From a virus (Duplodnaviria; Heunggongvirae; Uroviricota; Caudoviricetes), in IMG/VR virus record IMGVR_UViG_2565956714_000006, positions 1-21,539 of that record: a stretch of DNA of 21,539 bases; one strand, 5' to 3'. Made by a program: the position numbers and the translations under genes. Under the pieces are notes generated by a model that was given only the letters and a program-made list of their open reading frames with translations, had not been told where the DNA came from and ran no database searches. This document shows positions 1 through 20,269 of the stretch, piece by piece (within the stretch, counting starts at the first letter, position 1; each line of letters begins with the position of its first letter).

Positions 1-1215
1 ATGCTCACCGTTAAGCAGATTGAAGCAGCAAAGCCGAAAGAAAAACCATACCGCCTACTCGATGGTAATGGCCTGTACCTTTATGTCCCTGTATCAGGGA
101 AAAAGGTATGGCAGCTTCGCTACAAGATTGACGGTAAGGAGAAAATCCTGACTGTCGGAAAATATCCGCTTATGACTTTGCAGGAAGCAAGGGATAAGGC
201 ATGGACTGCGAGGAAAGACATCTCGGTTGGCATCGATCCGGTAAAGGCGAAAAAGGCTTCGTCTAACAACAATTCCTTTAGTGCGATTTACAAGGAATGG
301 TACGAGCACAAGAAGCAAGTCTGGTCAGTAGGCTATGCAAACGAACTTGCCAAAATGTTTGACGACGACATTTTACCCATCATCGGCGGTCTTGAGATTC
401 AGGATATTGAGCCGATGCAACTGCTGGAAGTAATCCGAAGATTCGAAGATCGCGGTGCAATGGAGCGAGCCAACAAAGCCCGCAGAAGATGCGGCGAGGT
501 TTTCCGTTACGCTATTGTCACCGGAAGGGCTAAATATAACCCAGCACCTGACCTTGCTGACGCCATGAAGGGATACCGCAAGAAGAACTTCCCGTTTCTT
601 CCTGCAGACCAGATCCCGGCATTCAACAAAGCACTGGCAACATTTTCAGGAAGTATCGTATCGCTCATTGCGACCAAAGTTTTACGCTACACAGCCCTAA
701 GAACGAAAGAGCTTCGTTCCATGCTATGGAAGAACGTCGATTTTGAAAACAGGATTATCACCATCGACGCCAGTGTGATGAAGGGACGCAAAATTCATGT
801 GGTTCCTATGTCAGACCAGGTAGTTGAACTTCTCACTACGCTAAGCTCCATCACCAAACCAGTATCAGAGTTTGTTTTTGCCGGTCGCAACGATAAGAAG
901 AAGCCAATCTGCGAGAACGCGGTATTGCTTGTGATCAAACAAATCGGCTATGAGGGTCTGGAAAGCGGTCACGGATTCAGGCATGAATTCAGCACGATTA
1001 TGAACGAGCACGAATGGCCTGCTGATGCTATTGAAGTGCAACTGGCACATGCCAACGGCGGATCTGTGCGTGGGATTTACAACCATGCTCAGTATCTCGA
1101 TAAGCGCAGAGAAATGATGCAGTGGTGGGCGGATTGGGTTGATGAAAAGGTGGAGCAACCAACATTGCTATATTCACTCAGCAAAAACAACAAAAATGTC
1201 AACATAACCAAATAA
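1..1215 (+). CDS. int: P4/IntA-family tyrosine integrase, 404 aa, apparently complete; window starts exactly at its ATG
   Basis: N-terminus MLTVKQIEAAKPKEKPYRLLDGNGLY is typical of P4-type integrases. C-terminal catalytic signature present (R in LRTKELRS, HxxR in HGFRHEF, Y in IYNHAQY). Confidence 0.9.
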   Translation: MLTVKQIEAAKPKEKPYRLLDGNGLYLYVPVSGKKVWQLRYKIDGKEKILTVGKYPLMTLQEARDKAWTARKDISVGIDPVKAKKASSNNNSFSAIYKEWYEHKKQVWSVGYANELAKMFDDDILPIIGGLEIQDIEPMQLLEVIRRFEDRGAMERANKARRRCGEVFRYAIVTGRAKYNPAPDLADAMKGYRKKNFPFLPADQIPAFNKALATFSGSIVSLIATKVLRYTALRTKELRSMLWKNVDFENRIITIDASVMKGRKIHVVPMSDQVVELLTTLSSITKPVSEFVFAGRNDKKKPICENAVLLVIKQIGYEGLESGHGFRHEFSTIMNEHEWPADAIEVQLAHANGGSVRGIYNHAQYLDKRREMMQWWADWVDEKVEQPTLLYSLSKNNKNVNITK

Positions 1216-1419
1216 TTACATATTCATGTTCAGGAATATCGGTGCAATGAACACAAAAAGGACATTTCCAGCAATGAATCCATTTATTTTTTGTTCTTTT
1301 GAAACAATACGATAGCTTCTTAGAAGCCAATCCACAAGCATGCAAATCAAAACCGTTGGACAGTAGACGATCATTATGGTAACTGCTGCAACTATATACT
1401 GTACAATTTCACTAGGCAT
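1216..1419 (-). CDS. Small hydrophobic ORF (67 aa, two predicted TM segments) in an AT-rich remnant between int and IS5; possibly a moron remnant or spurious
   Basis: ATG-initiated ORF with an in-frame stop just upstream, so it is not an IS5-truncated longer gene. Weak Shine-Dalgarno, AT-rich rare codons. Stop codon abuts the int stop. Confidence 0.25.
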   Translation of the reverse strand: MPSEIVQYIVAAVTIMIVYCPTVLICMLVDWLLRSYRIVSKEQKINGFIAGNVLFVFIAPIFLNMNM

Positions 1420-1444
1420 TAAAGATTTTCACTATGGTTACTAG

Positions 1445-2640
<1,196 letters not shown>

Positions 2641-2728
2641 TTAACTATGAGATGAGTCTATGCAAAAAGATCTGTTGAATATTGCGTTCTATATATTTGG
2701 TTTTTGCACATTCCTGGTGTTTGCAAAG

Positions 2729-4726
2729 CTATTCTGACAACGAATCAGACTTCGCACCCTGCGTCAGGGCGTTAATTGCCTTTTGTGCCTGCTGCATGGC
2801 TTTCTCAAACGCTGTTGATCCGCGTGGGGTGTTTGCCATTCGGAGCATTGCATTTCTGAATGGCTCGCTCTCATAGGCGCGAGTAAGAAGTCCGTAGCTT
2901 ACTGCTGCGCCAGTTGTCGCCGGGTTCATTGCCGTCCCATACCCAATAATGAACGGGATAGTTTGCTGCCCTGTGGGTGTTGTTACTGCCGCTTTTGCAG
3001 CCTGCTGCGTGGATTGCAGGTAGTTTTTTAATCCTTTCAGATAAGCGGCTTCCTGACCTTTAAATGTGATGCCAGTCTGGTTTTGCAGGATGTTAAGCTG
3101 TCGAAGGAACTGGTCAGGGGATCCACCTGATTTCTCCATCGCCTTTCCAATGATGCCATTGCGCATTTGCGCCCTGCCAACACGACCAACTGAGTTATAC
3201 AGCGTCTTAATTTCCGATTTGTTCTTGCTGAATAGCATGTTGTTGACAACTTCCGGCGTCAGGTCGCCTTTCATGAGAACATTCTTCAGCCTGGTATTCT
3301 TTAGTTTCGCCGCTTCGTCAGCGTAGACGGCATTGGCCTGCTGATATTTACGGAGAGTATCGTTGCCAAGATTCTGACCAATGGCACCATTGATATCGTC
3401 TGTCATTGCCTTGTAAACGCGCTGAATGGCAGCATCGGACCGGTTTGGTAACACTGGTCGTTCCCCCTTCACGTCCATTCTGAACTGGCTGCGCAGATCG
3501 CTTAATTGCTTCAAATCCAGATTTACCGGACCATCAGGACCAGCATTGCGAACAAGCTCATCACGATAGGACTGAAGTTTTGAAATAGTCTCGTTATCGG
3601 CGACCTTACCAAGCTTCTGCAGGTTAGATATTTCTGTATCAATCTGCTGAATTGCTCGAGCAGGCTGGATATTGACTCCCGCCATTGCATTCTGAACCTG
3701 CTCAAGACGGTTCCCTGCAGCACGACGAATTCCTGATGTTTTCGCTTTAAGGCTGTCAATAACAACAGCTGGATCATACTCACCGAATTTATCAGCAAAT
3801 CTCTGCACCAACTGGCTTCTCGCTTCCTGTTGCGTTGCTCTCATTCCGCTTGTGCCAGCCAGGGGGATATTTTCCGCTGTCGTCTGCGCCATTTTCCCGA
3901 CGCGGGAAGTAGGCTGTAACAGGTCTGTGGTGTGCAGAGGAACTCCTTCACGCTCTGCAAATCTGATAGCCTGCTGCGCTTCTGGCGCAATAGCACCACG
4001 AACGCCACGATAAGCAGCACCTAATCCACGTCCGGCAGCGTTAATAGCACCGCCAGCCAGCACACCAACGCCTAAATCGGTAGCGAGTGCTTCAGCATCA
4101 TCTTTCATACTGTTTGCAGCAAGTGATCCAACTGCGTTTTCTGCTAGAAGGCGAGTTGCCCCCTGAGCAATTCGACCAGCAAGTGTTGGTGCCTGTACCG
4201 CCGCTCTCTCAACGCCAGCAGGAGTGAGGTAAGGCAATGCTTCAGCAAATACCCTTCCCTCTGTCGTTTGTGGAGTCAGCGCGCCTTGCTGAAGGCCAAA
4301 GTCCTGCTCTACCCCCTGCGTTGTTACTCGTGGCGCTGGTTGATATGTACCATCGCCAATGCCGAGTTTACCGCCAGCCCATGCCGCTGCGCTTGTTACA
4401 GCATCGGCAACTGATGCAGGTATGTTTGCCACGTTCACGCCAGCCTGCACCAGTCCGCGACCAGTCTCTTTTACTGCTTCGCCAAGATCAGACATAAATC
4501 CACTTTGCTGTGGTTGTTGCTGTGCTACTGGTTGCTGTGTCTCCACTTGCTGCACAGATGGCAATGGATAGGCAGCATAGAAAGCTTGCTTAGCCTGCTC
4601 TGCATTTTCTCCGGCTTGCGGGGCCACGACTTCATTGAAGTATTGCTCCTGAGCCTGCGCTTTTTGTTCTGGTGCTAACGCCTGATACTGTGGAGAGGCG
4701 ATAACATCTTTCCATGCTTTAGCCAT
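2729..4726 (-). CDS. P22 gp16-like ejection (internal virion) protein, 665 aa
   Basis: Last gene of the morphogenesis operon in the position of P22 gene 16 / Sf6 gp13. Ala/Gln/Gly-rich composition typical of ejection proteins. Start ATG overlaps the upstream stop (TAATG). Confidence 0.7.
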   Translation of the reverse strand: MAKAWKDVIASPQYQALAPEQKAQAQEQYFNEVVAPQAGENAEQAKQAFYAAYPLPSVQQVETQQPVAQQQPQQSGFMSDLGEAVKETGRGLVQAGVNVANIPASVADAVTSAAAWAGGKLGIGDGTYQPAPRVTTQGVEQDFGLQQGALTPQTTEGRVFAEALPYLTPAGVERAAVQAPTLAGRIAQGATRLLAENAVGSLAANSMKDDAEALATDLGVGVLAGGAINAAGRGLGAAYRGVRGAIAPEAQQAIRFAEREGVPLHTTDLLQPTSRVGKMAQTTAENIPLAGTSGMRATQQEARSQLVQRFADKFGEYDPAVVIDSLKAKTSGIRRAAGNRLEQVQNAMAGVNIQPARAIQQIDTEISNLQKLGKVADNETISKLQSYRDELVRNAGPDGPVNLDLKQLSDLRSQFRMDVKGERPVLPNRSDAAIQRVYKAMTDDINGAIGQNLGNDTLRKYQQANAVYADEAAKLKNTRLKNVLMKGDLTPEVVNNMLFSKNKSEIKTLYNSVGRVGRAQMRNGIIGKAMEKSGGSPDQFLRQLNILQNQTGITFKGQEAAYLKGLKNYLQSTQQAAKAAVTTPTGQQTIPFIIGYGTAMNPATTGAAVSYGLLTRAYESEPFRNAMLRMANTPRGSTAFEKAMQQAQKAINALTQGAKSDSLSE

Positions 4727-14443: not shown

Positions 14444-15859
14444 TCAACCTACACCACAAGGAATTGAGTAACTGGAATAGTCGGGTTGCGCAGCCGACTC
14501 CGGGCAATGCATGCACATCATCAGCGCATCAGCCAGGTTAGGAGATGGAATACCGAGCTTCTGCTTCATTTCGACCTTAGTCATAAGCTCCAGCTTCCCG
14601 TTGTTATTGAATTTGCGCTGAATCTGCGTCAGTTCTGCAAACAGCTTCTCCAGCATCTTCTCGCCTATCGCTTCTTTGTCGAAACTCAGCATGTCGTCTG
14701 GGTCTGCATACTCACCGTGAACAACCGCCCGATATGTCAGATACAGCCTGTCAGCCAGCGCGTAATAGAATTGCGCTCGCTTATTGCGGAACACATCGCC
14801 AATAGTGCGAACGTTGTCGCCCTGTACGACTTCATCAGCCCATGCTCCGGCCTGATATGGCGCATCTTCATCGAATGGCGATTCGCTGCCCTTGAACATC
14901 GTGGCGGTGATTTTCTTGCCGGAGAACGCTTCCGTTGTCTGTCTGCGTAGCCCTGCACCGACACCATCGCCATCCCACAGGTAATGGTCAGCGCCGTCTT
15001 CAATCGCCAGCGAAATAGCCCAGTCAGCACCCTCGTTGATGTCCATCAGCAGACCTTCGGCAATGCGCTTAACTACCGAACCGTGACGCGATGCATAACC
15101 TTTAGCATCTGGCCCTGTATCTGATGGGTCATGCGCAGAAACAACAGCGCCTTTCGCTTTCCATCCGAGTTTCTTGTGCGCATCGGTTGCGGCTTCAAGC
15201 CATTCACGTTTGATGATTGCCATATCACTTGCGCTTACCGGCTCACCCAGCCAGATGTGACGATACAGTGTCGGATTTCTGCGTTTACACTCTTCCATCT
15301 CCAGACGGAGAACTTCAGGAAAATGCGGGTTGTCGGTGTAGTTCACCGTCAGCAGACAGATATCATCGGGAGGGTTTACTACGAATCGCTGATAGGTATC
15401 GTCGAGGATGTTTTTCGGGTTGAAGCTCACCCATATTTCGGAAAATGGCTTGCGGATGGTTGGTATCAGGATATCCCATGATTCCTTCGTTACCGCTTCC
15501 GCTTCTTCCACCCAGCAGATATCAATGCCTTCGAGCGATTTAATCTTCGTCGGGTTGTTTTTGATGCCGTAGAACATGAACTCAGCATTCGTTCCGAGAT
15601 GACGAATCATTGAACGCTGAATTTCAAACTCAGCCGAATACCCTTCACGCTCGATGGTATCTTCAAGCAACCGGATTACCGAATCGCTGATACTGTTTTG
15701 CAGTTCACGAGCGCAGAGAATACGCACAGGCTGCCGACGCGCCGCCTCAACAAGCAGCCTCGCTATTGCCCATGATTTACCGCTACCTCGACCGCCTTTG
15801 GCAACTTTGTAGCGATGCGCCTCAATGAACGGTTCAAAGATAGGATTAATCGAGGTCAT
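14444..15859 (-). CDS. Terminase large subunit (Sf6 gp2-like), 471 aa
   Basis: Walker A-like KGGRGSGKS near the N-terminus; follows terS with an ATGA overlap; size as Sf6/P22-type TerL. Confidence 0.9.
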   Translation of the reverse strand: MTSINPIFEPFIEAHRYKVAKGGRGSGKSWAIARLLVEAARRQPVRILCARELQNSISDSVIRLLEDTIEREGYSAEFEIQRSMIRHLGTNAEFMFYGIKNNPTKIKSLEGIDICWVEEAEAVTKESWDILIPTIRKPFSEIWVSFNPKNILDDTYQRFVVNPPDDICLLTVNYTDNPHFPEVLRLEMEECKRRNPTLYRHIWLGEPVSASDMAIIKREWLEAATDAHKKLGWKAKGAVVSAHDPSDTGPDAKGYASRHGSVVKRIAEGLLMDINEGADWAISLAIEDGADHYLWDGDGVGAGLRRQTTEAFSGKKITATMFKGSESPFDEDAPYQAGAWADEVVQGDNVRTIGDVFRNKRAQFYYALADRLYLTYRAVVHGEYADPDDMLSFDKEAIGEKMLEKLFAELTQIQRKFNNNGKLELMTKVEMKQKLGIPSPNLADALMMCMHCPESAAQPDYSSYSIPCGVG

Positions 15860-16281
15860 TTTACGAATAGAGTGCTCATCGGTGATGTTTCAATCTGGAT
15901 TGCGCCGCCGTCTTTGCCGACAAGCTCGTTAGTTACCTTGTCGCCATACTTACGGGGATTCATTCGGGCCAGCGCCCATTTGCGGGTATCAACGCGAAGT
16001 CTTGCCTTTGCCACCTCAGCAGCATCTGGAATCGCAGTGTCAGCAATTTCGAATATCTCTTCGAAAATAGAATCAGCTCGCGCCTCAGTTGCCTTCGCGT
16101 ACTTGTCTCTAAAGTCGTCATGCTCTGACAGCCAGCGAAATACAGTAGCCTTTGCTGGCATGCCGGGGCGCTTGCAAACCTTAACCAGACTTTCCCCGGA
16201 GGCAAGCAGCGCACAGATATCATCAGCCACCTCCGGCAGGTAATCCGAAGGGCGACCGACATTCTTTTTCTCAGTCGCCAT
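15856..16281 (-). CDS. Terminase small subunit (Sf6 gp1-like), 141 aa
   Basis: Sequence MATEKKNVGRPSDYLPEVADDICALLASGESLVKVCKRPGMP...RMNPRKYGDKVTNELVG closely matches Sf6 small terminase as recalled. Confidence 0.85.
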   Translation of the reverse strand: MATEKKNVGRPSDYLPEVADDICALLASGESLVKVCKRPGMPAKATVFRWLSEHDDFRDKYAKATEARADSIFEEIFEIADTAIPDAAEVAKARLRVDTRKWALARMNPRKYGDKVTNELVGKDGGAIQIETSPMSTLFVK

Positions 16282-16360
16282 ATTGATTATTTCCCTTCTG
16301 CTTGCTTATCCCATTCATCGCGGAATTTGGATGGGTTGTCGAAACCTTGAGTTGCCATGT

Positions 16361-16603
16361 TTATGCTCCGGTAGTGAACAGGTCTAACGCTTCCTTAGAT
16401 TTACGCACCGCTTCAAGTGTGCGGATCGTGATATCTGAATTAGCGCCGCCTGACTGGAAGTGAATTTTGAATAGCTCAAGCTTCAGTTCGTCAGTGCCAA
16501 TGAACTGAAATGCTTCCTCCGCGGCTGCGTTCTGGTTCATGACCAGTTTGTAAATCTCTAACTGGAATTTCTGTTCTTCAGTCATGGGAATAATCTCTGC
16601 CAT
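16361..16603 (-). CDS. Hypothetical phage protein, 80 aa (position equivalent to P22 orf80)
   Basis: ATG with GGAG 6 nt upstream; tightly packed upstream of terS; no recognisable motif. Confidence 0.45.
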   Translation of the reverse strand: MAEIIPMTEEQKFQLEIYKLVMNQNAAAEEAFQFIGTDELKLELFKIHFQSGGANSDITIRTLEAVRKSKEALDLFTTGA

Positions 16604-16706
16604 TGTTGGCTCCGTTTATCCGTTAAAAGGGATATCAGTTAAGTTATCCCGTGTAGGGTATAAGCCATTGTCAAAGCCACTCTGTAGGGAATGGCTTTTG
16701 TAATAA

Positions 16707-17063
16707 CTACTGTTCGCTTAGCTTCTGCTTCAGCAAGTAACCTTCGAGCATCCAGATTTTGTTTACAGCATTCTGCCGGGCAATCTTCCGACCAATTTCT
16801 GCATCAAAATTTTCCGGACTTGCACAGGCACTCTCTCCGGTGACGGTGAAGCCATTCTTCAGCACCAGTACGCAGAAAGTCAGGAGGTCTGTAGATTTAT
16901 GCGCTGTCCATGAATCGCCAACGCCCATATTGGCAGCACGAATGCCGTCATAAGCAGTAAAGAAATGCTCTTCAAGAATGATGCTTTCGATATATTGAGG
17001 CGTAACGCGCGGTGCCGTTTTGCCTTTCTCAACGATTTCTTTTTCGATTTGCTGGTCGTTCAT
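16707..17063 (-). CDS. Hypothetical phage protein, 118 aa; possibly N4 gp49 / Sf6 gene 66 family
   Basis: Clean ORF with ATG start. Family assignment is from memory of where such genes sit, next to lysis genes in enterobacterial prophages; unverified. Confidence 0.45.
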   Translation of the reverse strand: MNDQQIEKEIVEKGKTAPRVTPQYIESIILEEHFFTAYDGIRAANMGVGDSWTAHKSTDLLTFCVLVLKNGFTVTGESACASPENFDAEIGRKIARQNAVNKIWMLEGYLLKQKLSEQ

Positions 17064-17346
17064 AATTATGACCCTGTGGAGTGGTTGCTTGATTAGGATG
17101 TCTTTCCATCAGTCCGCCACCACAAAGAATCTTTTTTGCCATAAGGCAGGAGGTTCATCTTTCAGTGGCTGCCAGTGTTATTTCCCCACTTACTGGCTTG
17201 GGTTGTTTCGCTGTACTGCCGCAACTGGTGGTGCACAGATTTAGTTAAATCTGTTCTCGCCTGAACTATCTTTTACATACCCGGATTGTGGGGATGTAAA
17301 TCACGGTTTCATTATCAAGCCCACCCGTAGATGGGCTTTGGAATGG

Positions 17347-17865
17347 TCACTTTGGCAGTCCGGGGATCGATATTTGCGCCTGCTGCTCAAGCCTTTCGAT
17401 TCTTGCTATGAGTTGCGGTTTTTTGATCCTGCCCCAGCGGTTTAGCAAGCGTCCTGACATACTGGCAACATCCTTTTCCTTCATGAACTCCAGCATTAAC
17501 TCGTTGTGCTCTCTTTGGTATGAGTGAGCCATCTCCATCAGCCTGTCACGCATCCAATTAAATGCTTTGATAAACGCCTCTTTGATGGCGGCAGCTTTTT
17601 TGCCGGTAAACGACATGATGATGTACATCGCGCCGTCTTTGGAAATTTCATATTCAACATACTGATTACCCTTGTGTTCATAGGTAACCCGCGAAAAGTT
17701 GCTGGTTAGAAATTCATCCGAACAGTCTAGCTTTTCGATTTTCTGAATGATGTGGTGATGCTGCTTGTCGAAGTAAGCTGCTACCTTGCGGGAGGTTGTG
17801 ATCACGCGATCACCAGAAACAACCACCATGTCCCGGAAATCGAGATTAGCCAATTGATGATTCAT
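17347..17865 (-). CDS. Rha-family phage regulatory protein, 172 aa from ATG at 17865 (track ORF uses upstream GTG at 17901)
   Basis: Motifs TTSRKVAAYFDKQHHHIIQKIEKL and YEISKDGAMYIIMSFTGKKAAAIKEAFIKAFNWM fit the Rha N-terminal domain consensus. Confidence 0.65.
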   Translation of the reverse strand: MNHQLANLDFRDMVVVSGDRVITTSRKVAAYFDKQHHHIIQKIEKLDCSDEFLTSNFSRVTYEHKGNQYVEYEISKDGAMYIIMSFTGKKAAAIKEAFIKAFNWMRDRLMEMAHSYQREHNELMLEFMKEKDVASMSGRLLNRWGRIKKPQLIARIERLEQQAQISIPGLPK

Positions 17866-18014
17866 AGCGTCTTTACCTTTTAGAAAGTGAGCCTGTCTCA
17901 CAGAAAAGCCGCCCCGAGATGGTCGCCACCATATACGGCAGTTCTCAGGCTCAACTTTCTGAAAGGCTCGGGTGATGTAATATGCGCGTAAGATGCGCTG
18001 TGAAATTCAGATGT

Positions 18015-18037
18015 AAAAAAAGCCCCGCATCGCGAGG
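18015..18037 (-). terminator. Intrinsic terminator downstream of the lysis cassette
   Basis: Minus-strand RNA CCUCGC-GAU-GCGGGG hairpin (contains a G-U pair, so stable only on this strand) followed by C + UUUUUUU. Confidence 0.55.
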
Positions 18038-18071
18038 ATCATTAAATTGACTTTGTGATTTGCAAAAAAAA

Positions 18072-18509
18072 TTATTTCAGGCATTGCGTCCTGATGTACT
18101 CCTGCAGGTAGTTAACCTGCGCGGTTATCTTGTCGATTCCACTTCGGAGACGGTAATAATTGAGTTCAGCATCTGCTGTAAGTCTTGGGCTTTCTCCATC
18201 GCCCATGCCGCTGGCTCCGGTCGTTGACTTTGCACAGGTGGCGGCGACTTGCAGGCGCTTACGCCCAGCAGAAACATCAGCACGGAGACTTTCGATAGTC
18301 GCGTTAGCATCAGCAAGCTCCTTTGTGTATCTTGCGTCGAGTTCTGCTACATCACGTTGACGCTTCTGCATATCAGCGATGATGGATGTGGCTTTATCGC
18401 GCTGCTCTTTGTAGGTCATGGCGTTATCACGGTAATGATTAACAGCCCACGACAGGCAGACGATGATGCAGATAATCAGAGCGGAGATAATCGCGGTTAC
18501 TCTGCTCAT
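18072..18509 (-). CDS. Rz: Rz i-spanin, 145 aa
   Basis: N-terminal about 30 aa match lambda Rz ([28 protein letters not shown]) with signal-anchor TM; start overlaps the R stop. Confidence 0.9.
18125..18310 (-). CDS. Rz1: Rz1 o-spanin lipoprotein embedded in +1 frame within Rz, 61 aa from ATG (track lists a TTG start at 18316)
   Basis: Signal peptide with lipobox VSAC, Pro-rich mature part, fully embedded in Rz as in lambda. Confidence 0.75.
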
Positions 18510-18982
18510 GCCTCAATCTCTCTTACCGTTCCGCCAGCTTCTTTGAATTTTGCAATCAGGCTGTCAGCCTTATGCTCGAACTGACCATAACCAGCACCCG
18601 GCAGTGAAGCCCAGATATTGCTGCAACGGTCGATTGCCTGACGAATATCACCGCGATCAATCATCGGTAAAGCGCCACGCTCCTTAATCTGCTGCAGCGC
18701 AACAGCGTCCTGGCTTTTGGGAGAGAAGTCTTTCAGGCCAAGCTGCTTACGGTAAGCATCCCACCAACGGGAAAGAAGCTGGTAACGTCCGGCTGCTGTT
18801 GATTTGAGTTTGGGGTTTAGCGTGACAAGTTTGCGAGGGTGATCGGAGTAATCAGTGAATAGCTCTCCGCCAACAATGACGTCATAACCGTGATTTCTGG
18901 TTTTCTGTCGTCCGTTATCTGTTCCCTCTGACCACGCCAGCATATCGAGGAACGCCTTACGTTGATTATTGATTTCCACCAT
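18506..18982 (-). CDS. R: Endolysin R (lytic transglycosylase), 158 aa, lambda-type
   Basis: Near-identical to lambda R as recalled ([26 protein letters not shown]...). Confidence 0.95.
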
Positions 18983-19289
18983 CTTCTACTCCGGCTTTTT
19001 TAGCAGCGAAGCGTTTGATAAGCGAACCAATCGAGTCAGTACCGATGTAGCCGATGAACACGCTCGTTATATAAGCGAGATTGCTACTTAGTCCGGCGAA
19101 GTCGAGAAGGTCACGAATGAACCAGGCGATAATGGCGCACATCGTTGCGTCGATTACTGTTTTTGTAAACGCACCGCCATTATATCTGCCGCGAAGGTAC
19201 GCCATTGCAAACGCAAGGATTGCCCCGATGCCTTGTTCCTTTGCCGCGAGAATGGCGGCTAACAGGTCATGTTTTTCTGGCATCTTCAT
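18966..19289 (-). CDS. S: Holin/antiholin S (S107/S105 dual start), 107 aa, lambda-type
   Basis: Near-identical to lambda S as recalled, including the Met1-Lys2-Met3 dual-start motif (ATG at 19289 and 19283). Confidence 0.95.
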
Positions 19290-19414
19290 GTCTTACCCCC
19301 AATAAGGGGATTTGCTCTATTTAATTAGGAATAAGGTCGATTACTGATAGAACAAATCCAGGCTACTGTGTTTAGTAATCAGATTTGTTCGTGACCGATA
19401 TGCACGGGCAAAAC

Positions 19415-19444
19415 GGCATGAGGTTGTTAGCGCAACCTCATGCC
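19415..19444 (-). terminator. Perfect 12-bp stem hairpin (GGCATGAGGTTG / CAACCTCATGCC, 6-nt loop); candidate terminator or processing element downstream of the tRNAs
   Basis: Perfect inverted repeat; on the minus strand followed by GUUUUG. Lies in the otherwise empty interval between the tRNAs and S. Confidence 0.4.
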
Positions 19445-19531
19445 ACCCGCTTTCACGAAGATCATGTGTAGAAGGCCGCAGCGTAACTATCACTGATGAA
19501 TTCAGGATAGCCAGTGGCTACGGCTCAGTTA

Positions 19532-19743: not shown

Positions 19744-19773
19744 ATTATGGCTAAATGGATAATTGCATGTCAA
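19744..19773 (-). promoter_or_regulatory. pR'-like late promoter (sigma70 -35 TTGACA, 18-bp spacer, -10 CATAAT) at the 3' end of Q
   Basis: Consensus -35 hexamer at 19768-19773 and 5/6 -10 hexamer at 19744-19749 on the minus strand, where lambdoid phages place pR'. Confidence 0.55.
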
Positions 19774-20269
19774 GGCTTTTAACAGCAACATGCTTAACTT
19801 TCTCAACACGTTTACGCATTTTGAAAGCATTTTGCATTGGCTGGTACAAAACAAATAACGACGCTTTCAGGATGTCGTCAATTTCGTTTCTACAGGTTGC
19901 CAGTGAAGGTTTTCTCCATCCCTCGCCACCACGTCCACACATCTTGCGTGGCTTTGCAGTCGCGTGATAGTAGGATGCAATTGCTCGCTTAGATGAACCA
20001 TGAGCGTAGTAGCTGAGGAGGATGCCAAAGGCTTTCTTGTCAATGCACATGACGGAATCGACGACCTGAGAAATCAACATTCCATCATCATCATTGCACA
20101 TTGGCCTTGTCATAACTCTTCCCGGCTCTACGCTCTCCATGAACTTCGCTATTACGCTGCTCATACGCTTTTCCAGACGACCTGAATAAACCCATGCGCC
20201 CCACAGTTCAAGCCAGCCATTCAGCCACTCATGATGTTCTTTGGTGAGGTTTAGTTCTCTTATGCCCAC
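19751..20269 (-). CDS. Q: Late antiterminator Q, phi82/933W type, 172 aa with probable GTG start overlapping the ninI stop
   Basis: Motifs [21 protein letters not shown] and LLSYYAHG match the conserved pattern of 933W-type Q as recalled; unlike lambda Q. GGAG lies 7 nt upstream of the GTG. Confidence 0.7.

Follow-up and report, generated by a model that had tools for sequence, protein, structure and literature searches.

The question raised by this locus is whether three adjacent genes lying between the lysis genes and the terminase genes of a P22-like prophage make up an anti-defence or exclusion system, or whether they have separate functions. The window analysed here is the whole stretch of 21,539 nucleotides (nt) of the IMG/VR record IMGVR_UViG_2565956714_000006 (Caudoviricetes; positions 1 to 21,539), and the interval in question occupies positions 16361-17865. 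A first-pass annotation of the window had described this interval as a variable region that holds a Rha-family protein, a 118-amino-acid (aa) protein and an 80-aa protein, none with an established molecular function, and had considered this co-transcribed trio the most plausible place for an undescribed anti-defence or exclusion function. The present analysis indicated, with a probability that we put at roughly three in four, that the interval is a late-operon cargo slot of the prophage carrying three functionally independent genes, one of which encodes a sponge of the Acb4 family, rather than one system. The three genes are as follows.

17347-17865, minus strand: Rha-family protein, 172 aa if started at the ATG, with 12 more if the GTG at 17901 is used
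16707-17063, minus strand: acb4 homologue (PF13876; Gp49 / Sf6 gene 66 family), 118 aa; predicted cyclic-dinucleotide sponge
16361-16603, minus strand: DUF2560 protein (Sf6 gene 67 / HK620 hkbM / P22 orf80), 80 aa, directly upstream of terS

The three minus-strand open reading frames (ORFs) were confirmed in coordinates and Pfam families, in the order Rha, 118-aa gene, DUF2560, between Rz/Rz1 and terS. Since their Pfam scores far exceed the gathering thresholds, all three are genuine genes and not chance ORFs. The PHROGs assignments agree with Pfam, and both small proteins are labelled 'unknown function' there. The identical three-gene order is present in 93 of 5,426 complete Escherichia coli genomes, in which the RefSeq names are 'Rha family transcriptional regulator', 'Gp49 family protein' and 'DUF2560 family protein', respectively. 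No phage record covering at least 80% of the interval was found, which gave the first hint of its mosaic make-up.

The 118-aa protein is a member of the Acb4 family

Acb4 of the Bacillus phage SPO1 was discovered biochemically and its structure was solved with 3'3'-cGAMP as a 4:4 tetramer (PDB 9e4w); the protein alone is enough to defeat an operon of the cyclic oligonucleotide-based antiphage signalling system (CBASS) in vivo, and it has been placed in the Pfam family PF13876, with 1,331 homologues (Chang et al., bioRxiv 10.1101/2024.12.30.630793). Eight purified homologues were assayed in the same study; all of them bound 3'3'-cGAMP and none bound c-di-GMP, while 3'3'-c-di-AMP (3'3'-cAA) was bound only by those from phages of Gram-negative bacteria (Chang et al., bioRxiv 10.1101/2024.12.30.630793).

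The 118-aa protein matched the Pfam family Phage_gp49_66 (PF13876) over the entire profile (positions 1-82 of 82), scoring 118.6 bits (E 1.7e-34) where the gathering cutoff is 27. When the PDB sequences were searched with it by phmmer, a single match was obtained, 9e4w, that is SPO1 Acb4 (E 0.006), and alignment of its profile with SPO1-type Acb4 by hhalign gave a probability of 94%. An AlphaFold2 model built on an alignment of 39 sequences had a mean pLDDT (predicted local distance difference test) score of 82. The results of the Foldseek search of the PDB with this model showed that the top 13 matches were the 13 chains of 9e4w, with a probability of 1.00, a target-normalised template-modelling (TM) score of 0.63-0.71 and, for the best-fitting chains, a root-mean-square deviation of 2.0 A over 87 columns; all other matches had probabilities of at most 0.69. 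Structure prediction, which the first-pass annotation had named as a check on both small proteins, thus gave for this one a model that matches a solved structure. In sequence the protein is about 75% identical to Sf6 gp66, 43% to the homologue of phage N4 and about 24% to the crystallised SPO1 Acb4. Table S3 of Chang et al. lists a protein of Shigella dysenteriae (A0A2S8DH85) that is only 2 residues off the window protein, and likewise Sf6 gp66 (Q716B1).

We concluded that the 118-aa protein is a member of the Acb4 family by both sequence and fold. The earlier statement that none of the three proteins had an established molecular function is therefore outdated, as PF13876 is the Acb4 family of anti-CBASS sponges described in 2024-25; the protein is in this sense already known, near-identical sequences being in the published family list. 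It is likely a sponge for CBASS cyclic dinucleotides, and from its relatives we infer that it binds such ligands and forms a tetramer. As in SPO1 Acb4, three antiparallel strands are flanked by helices, and both the ENF-x-x-E-I-G-R core and the aromatic residues of the pocket have been kept; the aromatic/hydrophobic pocket is retained in that F48, F62 and I66 of SPO1 correspond to F72, F86 and I90. V56 of SPO1 is replaced by C80, and N63, whose contact in SPO1 runs through the backbone, by D87. Like other members of the family, the protein is encoded by a phage or prophage and falls in the size range of about 100-125 aa. It differs from SPO1 Acb4 in that its gene sits in the late operon of a temperate phage and in having a hypervariable loop.

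Residues 40-60 correspond to a hypervariable, indel-rich loop of Acb4 homologues, located between two highly conserved halves. The C-terminal core of the homologues is 58-70% identical across Beta- and Gammaproteobacteria. Selection for escape from recognition by the host could account for the hypervariability of this loop.

The three genes assort independently

Linkage was described from two samples, each made up of 80 viral contigs, one anchored on DUF2560 and the other on the Sf6-type terS; each provided 72 usable loci. The DUF2560-anchored sample was drawn from a narrower DUF2560 alignment, and its DUF2560 genes are 98-100% identical. Among its 72 complete Rz-to-DUF2560 intervals, 4 contain both Rha and Acb4, 23 contain Rha only, 12 contain Acb4 only and 33 contain neither (Fisher p 0.38). 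Among the 72 terS-anchored loci, DUF2560 is present in 71, Rha in 27 and Acb4 in 21, and Rha and Acb4 occur together in 10, against 7.9 expected (Fisher p 0.29). We also inspected 80 loci carrying this Acb4 clade, one genome per species, which range from Enterobacterales to Burkholderiales and Pseudomonas. DUF2560 was found near Acb4 in 3 of these loci, Rha in 1, a Tad2-like gene in 3 and Sequestin in 4; the immediate neighbours were mostly portal, Mu F, Rz, terS and tail sheath genes. Rha, Acb4 and DUF2560 therefore assort independently and are not a conserved trio: Rha and Acb4 co-occur at chance level in both samples, and no conserved linkage of the three genes was found. Acb4 thus behaves as a freely moving cassette, which usually lands among late genes.

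The boundaries of this cassette could be read directly from nucleotide comparison of related loci. The acb4 cassette spans 17096-16708 (389 bp) and consists of the ORF plus 33 bp with a ribosome-binding site; its edges, at 17097 and 16707, are sharp. In the loci without the cassette, the spacers 17239-17097 and 16707-16604 directly abut each other. The first of these is the following feature.

17097-17239, minus strand: conserved non-coding spacer; block 17221/17239-17097, with 95-99% identity in nearly all loci, with or without acb4

The edge of the block lies at 17097 in 48 loci. No significant fold (z = -0.7) and no Rfam match was found for this spacer. A 9-bp perfect inverted repeat, ACAGATTTA-AC-TAAATCTGT, is located upstream of acb4 at 17233-17252 and straddles the upstream edge of the conserved block.

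The sharp module edges and the alternative cargo of related loci (see below) bear out the earlier view of the lysis-to-terS interval as variable. The modules resemble the 'moron' cassettes of lambdoid phages in being discrete, present or absent, sharply bounded, followed by 3' hairpins and located inside the late operon. Because no cassette-specific promoter was detected and the hairpins are without T-runs, they are, unlike those, not classical autonomous morons.

The Rha-family protein and the first cargo position

The first gene encodes, as judged from its domains, an ordinary Rha-type protein of the DNA-binding regulator kind. Residues 23-106 match the N-terminal Rha DNA-binding domain (PF09669, E 1e-23, 84.1 bits against a cutoff of 29.9), residues 115-168 match the C-terminal ORF11CD3 domain (PF10549, E 8.8e-24, 83.9 bits), and the protein was assigned to PHROG 518, 'Rha-like transcriptional regulator' (E 5.5e-80). 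The Rha DNA-binding domain and the late-operon position between lysis and packaging genes are shared with phi80 Rha and P22 orf201 (PF09669). The rha gene of phi80 is described as an IHF-regulated gene of the late operon that harms phage growth when the IHF control is lost. The window protein differs from it in having the ORF11CD3 tail, which in related loci is also found on KilA-N proteins; furthermore, no IHF consensus site (WATCAANNNNTTR) was found in the whole window, though a consensus scan cannot exclude IHF binding. A literature search on ORF11CD3 and the Rha family returned nothing functional.

The first position is occupied by different genes in relatives of the prophage. The gene swaps start just after the ATG of Rha (17861/17860) and end at 17357-17345. 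The alternative occupants comprise KilA-N proteins, one of them ending, like Rha, in an ORF11CD3 domain, a T5orf172/MUG113 nuclease of the GIY-YIG type, DUF551 and a Tad2-like protein (PF11195, E 6e-22); an Acb2/Tad1-like protein is also among the alternative cargo. The ORF11CD3 tail (window 17347-17500), which ends in IPGLP, is common to the Rha-type and the KilA-N-type occupants, and the DNA-binding head is what is swapped.

The DUF2560 protein

The 80-aa protein matched PF10834 over the full profile (positions 1-72 of 72; E 1.8e-42, 143.8 bits against a cutoff of 25). It shares with the other DUF2560 proteins (Sf6 gene 67, HK620 hkbM, P22 orf80) the full-length match to the hidden Markov model and the position directly upstream of terS. 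This enterobacterial-phage family is very small: 5.8 billion proteins contained only 90 clusters of it (90% identity), and a set of 1.84 billion contained 69 representatives (50% identity). Its members are stand-alone proteins of 75-90 aa. They are consistently acidic, with a median isoelectric point (pI) of 4.8 (4.7 for the window protein). Conservation across the family is confined to hydrophobic positions (L15, A27, A31, F45), and this lack of conserved polar positions argues against an enzyme. The AlphaFold2 model, built on an alignment of 22 sequences, has four helices and a pLDDT of 55, and is unreliable; a profile search of the PDB sequences gave nothing below E 0.5, that is, no solved relative. 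For this protein, structure prediction thus provided a tentative helical outline. From its sequence features, DUF2560 is most likely a small acidic, non-enzymatic helical protein that acts by binding another protein.

The genomic position of DUF2560 is nearly constant in close relatives: it was found in 71 of the 72 loci anchored on the Sf6-type terS, and in 58 of these 71 it lies 79 bp upstream of terS. In locus L177 the distance is 12 bp. Divergent members (28-45% identity) are likewise located between the lysis cassette and the terminase genes in P22-like, HK97-like (HNH/Terminase_4) and lambda-like (GpA) phages. At least five unrelated terminase types follow DUF2560, namely Sf6-type with Terminase_3, Terminase_2 with Terminase_6, HNH with Terminase_4 and TerL, DUF1441 with GpA, and one unclassified. 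Homing nucleases are inserted between DUF2560 and terS in some loci. A DUF2560 gene sometimes stands beside a gene for an Acb2/Tad1-hairpin protein; an AcrIF11-like neighbour was seen in precomputed Pfam annotation only and was not reproduced by a local Pfam scan, and scanning ten genes next to divergent DUF2560 genes against Pfam produced no informative matches. In loci L172 and L173 (4761-5243) a divergent DUF2560 adjoins a homologue of DNA polymerase III theta (HolE-like). The two genes belong to an island that bears an integrase and lies beside folD; the 10-kb stretch examined contains neither lysis nor terminase genes, and this could be a satellite or what is left of a prophage.

A relationship with Sequestin (PF21825), an anti-Thoeris sponge that is often fused or adjacent to Acb4 and Tad2, was considered and rejected: hhalign against an alignment of 17 Sequestin sequences gave 0.1%, and no Pfam match was obtained at E 0.1 or below. 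DUF2560 is, like Sequestin, short (about 80 aa), helical, phage-specific and sometimes adjoining Acb4; unlike Sequestin, it is acidic, without detectable homology and never fused to Acb4 or Tad2. A search for domain fusions of DUF2560 yielded only deletion chimeras (P0261 and P0279). Literature searches on DUF2560 and on P22 orf80/terminase returned nothing relevant.

Transcription and RNA structure of the interval

The first-pass annotation had called the three genes co-transcribed. In a crude consensus scan of the minus strand from 15800 to 19500, no sigma-70-like promoter was found, including between the genes; co-transcription with the late operon is plausible on this sequence basis. The scans for promoters and terminators were both consensus-based. 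Four structured elements were noted.

18014-18037, minus strand: intrinsic-terminator-like hairpin (CCTCGCG-ATG-CGGGG, then T7), just after Rz, at the upstream edge of the variable interval
17866-17990, minus strand: structured leader ahead of the first variable gene, with a long stem at about 17875-17967
17317-17338, minus strand: GC-rich hairpin after the Rha stop, without a T-run, then GATAATG; -18.4 kcal/mol, z = -2.9
16663-16708, minus strand: hairpin directly after the acb4 stop, then GACAATG; -22.2 kcal/mol, z = -4.0, 0 of 200 shuffles as stable

The similarity blocks of many related loci begin at 18037 or 18029, that is, at the terminator-like hairpin. The leader, taken as the 125 nt before the Rha ATG, has a folding energy of -44.6 kcal/mol (z = -3.3), and 1 of 200 shuffles was as stable; a GC hairpin with a T-run behind it lies within its long stem, the 3' arm of which overlaps with the ribosome-binding site of Rha. 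The segment 18029-17861, which includes the leader, is kept where KilA-N, GIY-YIG or other genes replace Rha. The leader may be a translational or transcriptional gate for the first cargo slot.

The two hairpins that follow Rha and acb4 are alike (AAGCCCA...TGGGCTT GATAATG and AAAGCCA...TGGCTTT GACAATG), and both are without T-runs. The block 17345-17297, with the first of them, is conserved whatever the adjoining genes. These two hairpins could serve as stabilisers of RNA 3' ends or as boundary sequences for recombination. An Rfam scan of 15800-18600 found no family.

Acb4 and Tad2-like genes in N4, Huey and other phages

The PF13876 member of phage N4 is the gene tagged gp48 in RefSeq NC_008720 (33632-34003), the product of which is the 43% identical homologue mentioned above. 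RefSeq N4 gp49 was ruled out as a PF13876 member; despite the Pfam name 'N4 Gp49', it is a Tad2-like protein (PF11195). The Acb4 and Tad2-like genes of N4 are adjacent (NC_008720, 33632-34485). An N4 homologue of Acb4 was reported to trigger the PanDA guard system and to bind c-di-AMP at 111 nM, its binding of cUA being weaker by about 100-fold (2026 preprint); gp48 is presumably the protein of that preprint.

A Tad2-like gene directly upstream of acb4 is also found in some P22-like phages, such as Huey (382-762 and 997-1497) and locus L081 (3813-4292). The Tad2-like proteins of Huey and L081 are 66% identical to each other and 47% identical to N4 gp49. The Huey record labels both the Tad2-like and the acb4 gene 'anti-CRISPR protein', which looks like a mislabel of homologues of anti-Thoeris and anti-CBASS sponges. 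All 3 loci of the terS-anchored sample that have the Tad2-like gene have Acb4 as well. Fusions of Acb4 and Tad2 have been described, and one from a Pasteurella phage blocked an Escherichia albertii CBASS (Tal et al.); the pairing of the two genes in this slot, in Huey and in N4 echoes these fusions.

Proposed mechanism and alternative explanations

By analogy with the SPO1 and N4 proteins, the Acb4 homologue would form a homotetramer, the inter-subunit pockets of which would bind cyclic dinucleotides made by the CBASS cyclases of the host; with these signals sequestered, the effector would never be activated and the phage could complete assembly and lysis. Because the acb4 cassette has a ribosome-binding site and no promoter-like site, it would be expressed late and in a Q-dependent way, from the Q-antiterminated transcript with the lysis and packaging genes, and the simplest reading is that all three genes would be read from this Q-modified late transcript. 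The terminator and the structured leader would limit the expression of Rha or of any other occupant of the first slot. Rha would act as a DNA-binding regulator, with an N-terminal domain interchangeable with KilA-N and a retained ORF11CD3 domain, and DUF2560 would bind a protein partner, which might be a host defence factor or a packaging component.

It is highly improbable that the three genes constitute one co-functional anti-defence or exclusion system. Their adjacency on the same strand with no promoter-like site in between, and their identical order in the 93 complete E. coli genomes, would suit such a system, but Rha and Acb4 are each present in about one-third of otherwise near-identical loci and co-occur at the level of chance, coverage of the interval by any one phage record stays below 80%, and across 80 species the Acb4 clade stands beside DUF2560 in only 3 and beside Rha in only 1. 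Moreover, Acb4 alone suffices for CBASS evasion in the published system, and the PADLOC defence-system models gave no match for the 118-aa or the 80-aa protein and one marginal match for Rha (E 0.005). The idea of one system is largely refuted by this lack of linkage. A second alternative concerns the ligand: the 118-aa protein may have the Acb4 fold with a shifted ligand, for example 3'3'-c-di-AMP or some other signal, so that its main effect would not be evasion of cGAMP-type CBASS and it could even be a liability by triggering guard systems such as PanDA. Several of the ligand contacts of SPO1 are replaced, and the exact ligand is therefore not predictable: the guanine-reading K36 and E49 have become L60 and T73, and Y57, T70 and K81 have become A81, I94 and M105. 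At the positions of K36, E49 and V56 the N4 homologue has T, T and C, so that it has several replacements in common with the window protein; the N4 homologue of the 2026 preprint binds c-di-AMP far more strongly than cUA. The shared replacements fit the broader or shifted base specificity reported for homologues from phages of Gram-negative bacteria, which also bind 3'3'-cAA. On the other hand, all eight homologues assayed by Chang et al. still bound 3'3'-cGAMP, and the Pasteurella phage fusion blocked a CBASS. We regard a shifted ligand as unlikely, and it would refine rather than contradict the reading of the 118-aa protein as a CBASS sponge. The replaced contacts nevertheless count against our reading of the interval, together with several other points. 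The sponge role of the window protein is extrapolated from relatives; late expression of the sponge is deduced solely from an absent promoter consensus in a crude scan; the sampled loci are related prophages, and the Fisher tests given above overstate the independence of the observations; the DUF2560 model is of low confidence; and the roles proposed for Rha and DUF2560 come from domain content in the one case and from sequence and gene context in the other.

For DUF2560 two further explanations were weighed. It is tentatively conceivable, though rather unlikely, that it is an undescribed anti-defence protein at the 3' end of the hot spot, working as a protein-binding inhibitor and not as a nucleotide sponge. 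Its small size, acidity, helical character and lack of catalytic-type conservation are in keeping with this, as are its flanking genes in related and divergent phages, that is Acb4 (21 of 72 loci), Tad2-like, Acb2/Tad1-hairpin and, by the precomputed Pfam annotation, AcrIF11-like genes; and no essential P22 gene is known to map between gene 15 and gene 3. But DUF2560 is nearly fixed (71 of 72 loci), unlike variable counter-defence cargo, and in this respect resembles a core function more closely; neither a fusion to a known sponge nor a relation to Sequestin nor a solved relative was found; most of its neighbours in divergent contexts are without assigned function; and inference from neighbouring genes carries little weight in a slot where nucleases and regulators are found too. 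The same near-fixation in phages with the Sf6-type terS, and the place of DUF2560 immediately ahead of terS in the gene order of almost all contexts examined, would speak for an accessory factor of DNA packaging or late morphogenesis, which might modulate the terminase or protect cut DNA ends. This explanation is doubtful to about the same degree, for DUF2560 is found upstream of at least five unrelated terS/terL types without co-variation with the terminase, one member resides in the integrase-bearing island, where the 10 kb examined contain no terminase, and homing nucleases insert between DUF2560 and terS without apparent harm. Weighing these alternatives, we retained the reading of a cargo slot with three independent genes: the interval is a variable hot spot of the late operon in which one anti-defence gene, already known, is found, and it is not a new system. 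Of the earlier suggestion that an undescribed anti-defence function is hidden here, the part that an anti-defence gene is present held good; the function itself is the one already described for Acb4, and DUF2560 may be an exception.

The prophage and its late genes

The window represents a P22-like (Lederbergvirus-type) prophage in its integrated state, the late genes of which lie on the minus strand. Starting at the high-coordinate end, the order of the genes outside the interval is as follows.

High-coordinate end of the late-gene order, before the Q antiterminator: NinG, then a Metallophos phosphatase
19751-20269: Q antiterminator, upstream of the lysis genes
18966-19289: holin, upstream of the interval
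18506-18982: lysozyme, upstream of the interval
18072-18509: Rz with an embedded Rz1 frame, upstream of the interval
16287-16358, minus strand: 23-codon candidate ORF (MATQGFDNPSKFRDEWDKQAEGK), read from the sequence, which fills the 79-bp gap between DUF2560 and terS
15856-16281, minus strand: terS, Sf6-type small terminase subunit (PF20901, E 2.2e-44), the downstream boundary of the interval
14444-15859: terL, followed at lower coordinates by portal, scaffold, coat, tail and injection proteins
2729-4726: last injection-protein gene
1477-2493: IS5-family DDE transposase
1-1215, plus strand: integrase

The 23-codon ORF is near-invariant across 78 related loci, and its substitutions are too few for a selection test. 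The integrase and the IS5-family transposase (window 1-2728) come directly after the last injection-protein gene, with no tailspike gene or immI-type region between them. Since these are missing, the prophage may be defective.

Implications

The present results do not overturn current understanding, and Rha and DUF2560 are long-standing annotated families. A more far-reaching and improbable extension would be that DUF2560 is a new non-enzymatic counter-defence or host-takeover protein, that in P22-like enterobacterial phages, and in some lambda-like and HK97-like ones, the Rz-terS interval is a dedicated hot spot for inhibitors of immune signalling, and that the leader gates its first slot; if this were true, the inhibitors of the hot spot would be Acb4, Tad2-like, Acb2/Tad1-like and AcrIF11-like proteins. 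The protein annotated as 'Gp49 family protein' in P22-like prophages, including those of enterohaemorrhagic E. coli O26 and Shigella, is better read as a likely anti-CBASS sponge. In these widespread prophages, inhibitors of nucleotide immune signalling recur in the lysis-packaging slot, which is thus a sensible place to seek counter-defence genes, and the near-universal DUF2560 that adjoins the slot is the remaining lead, a candidate that is cheap to test.

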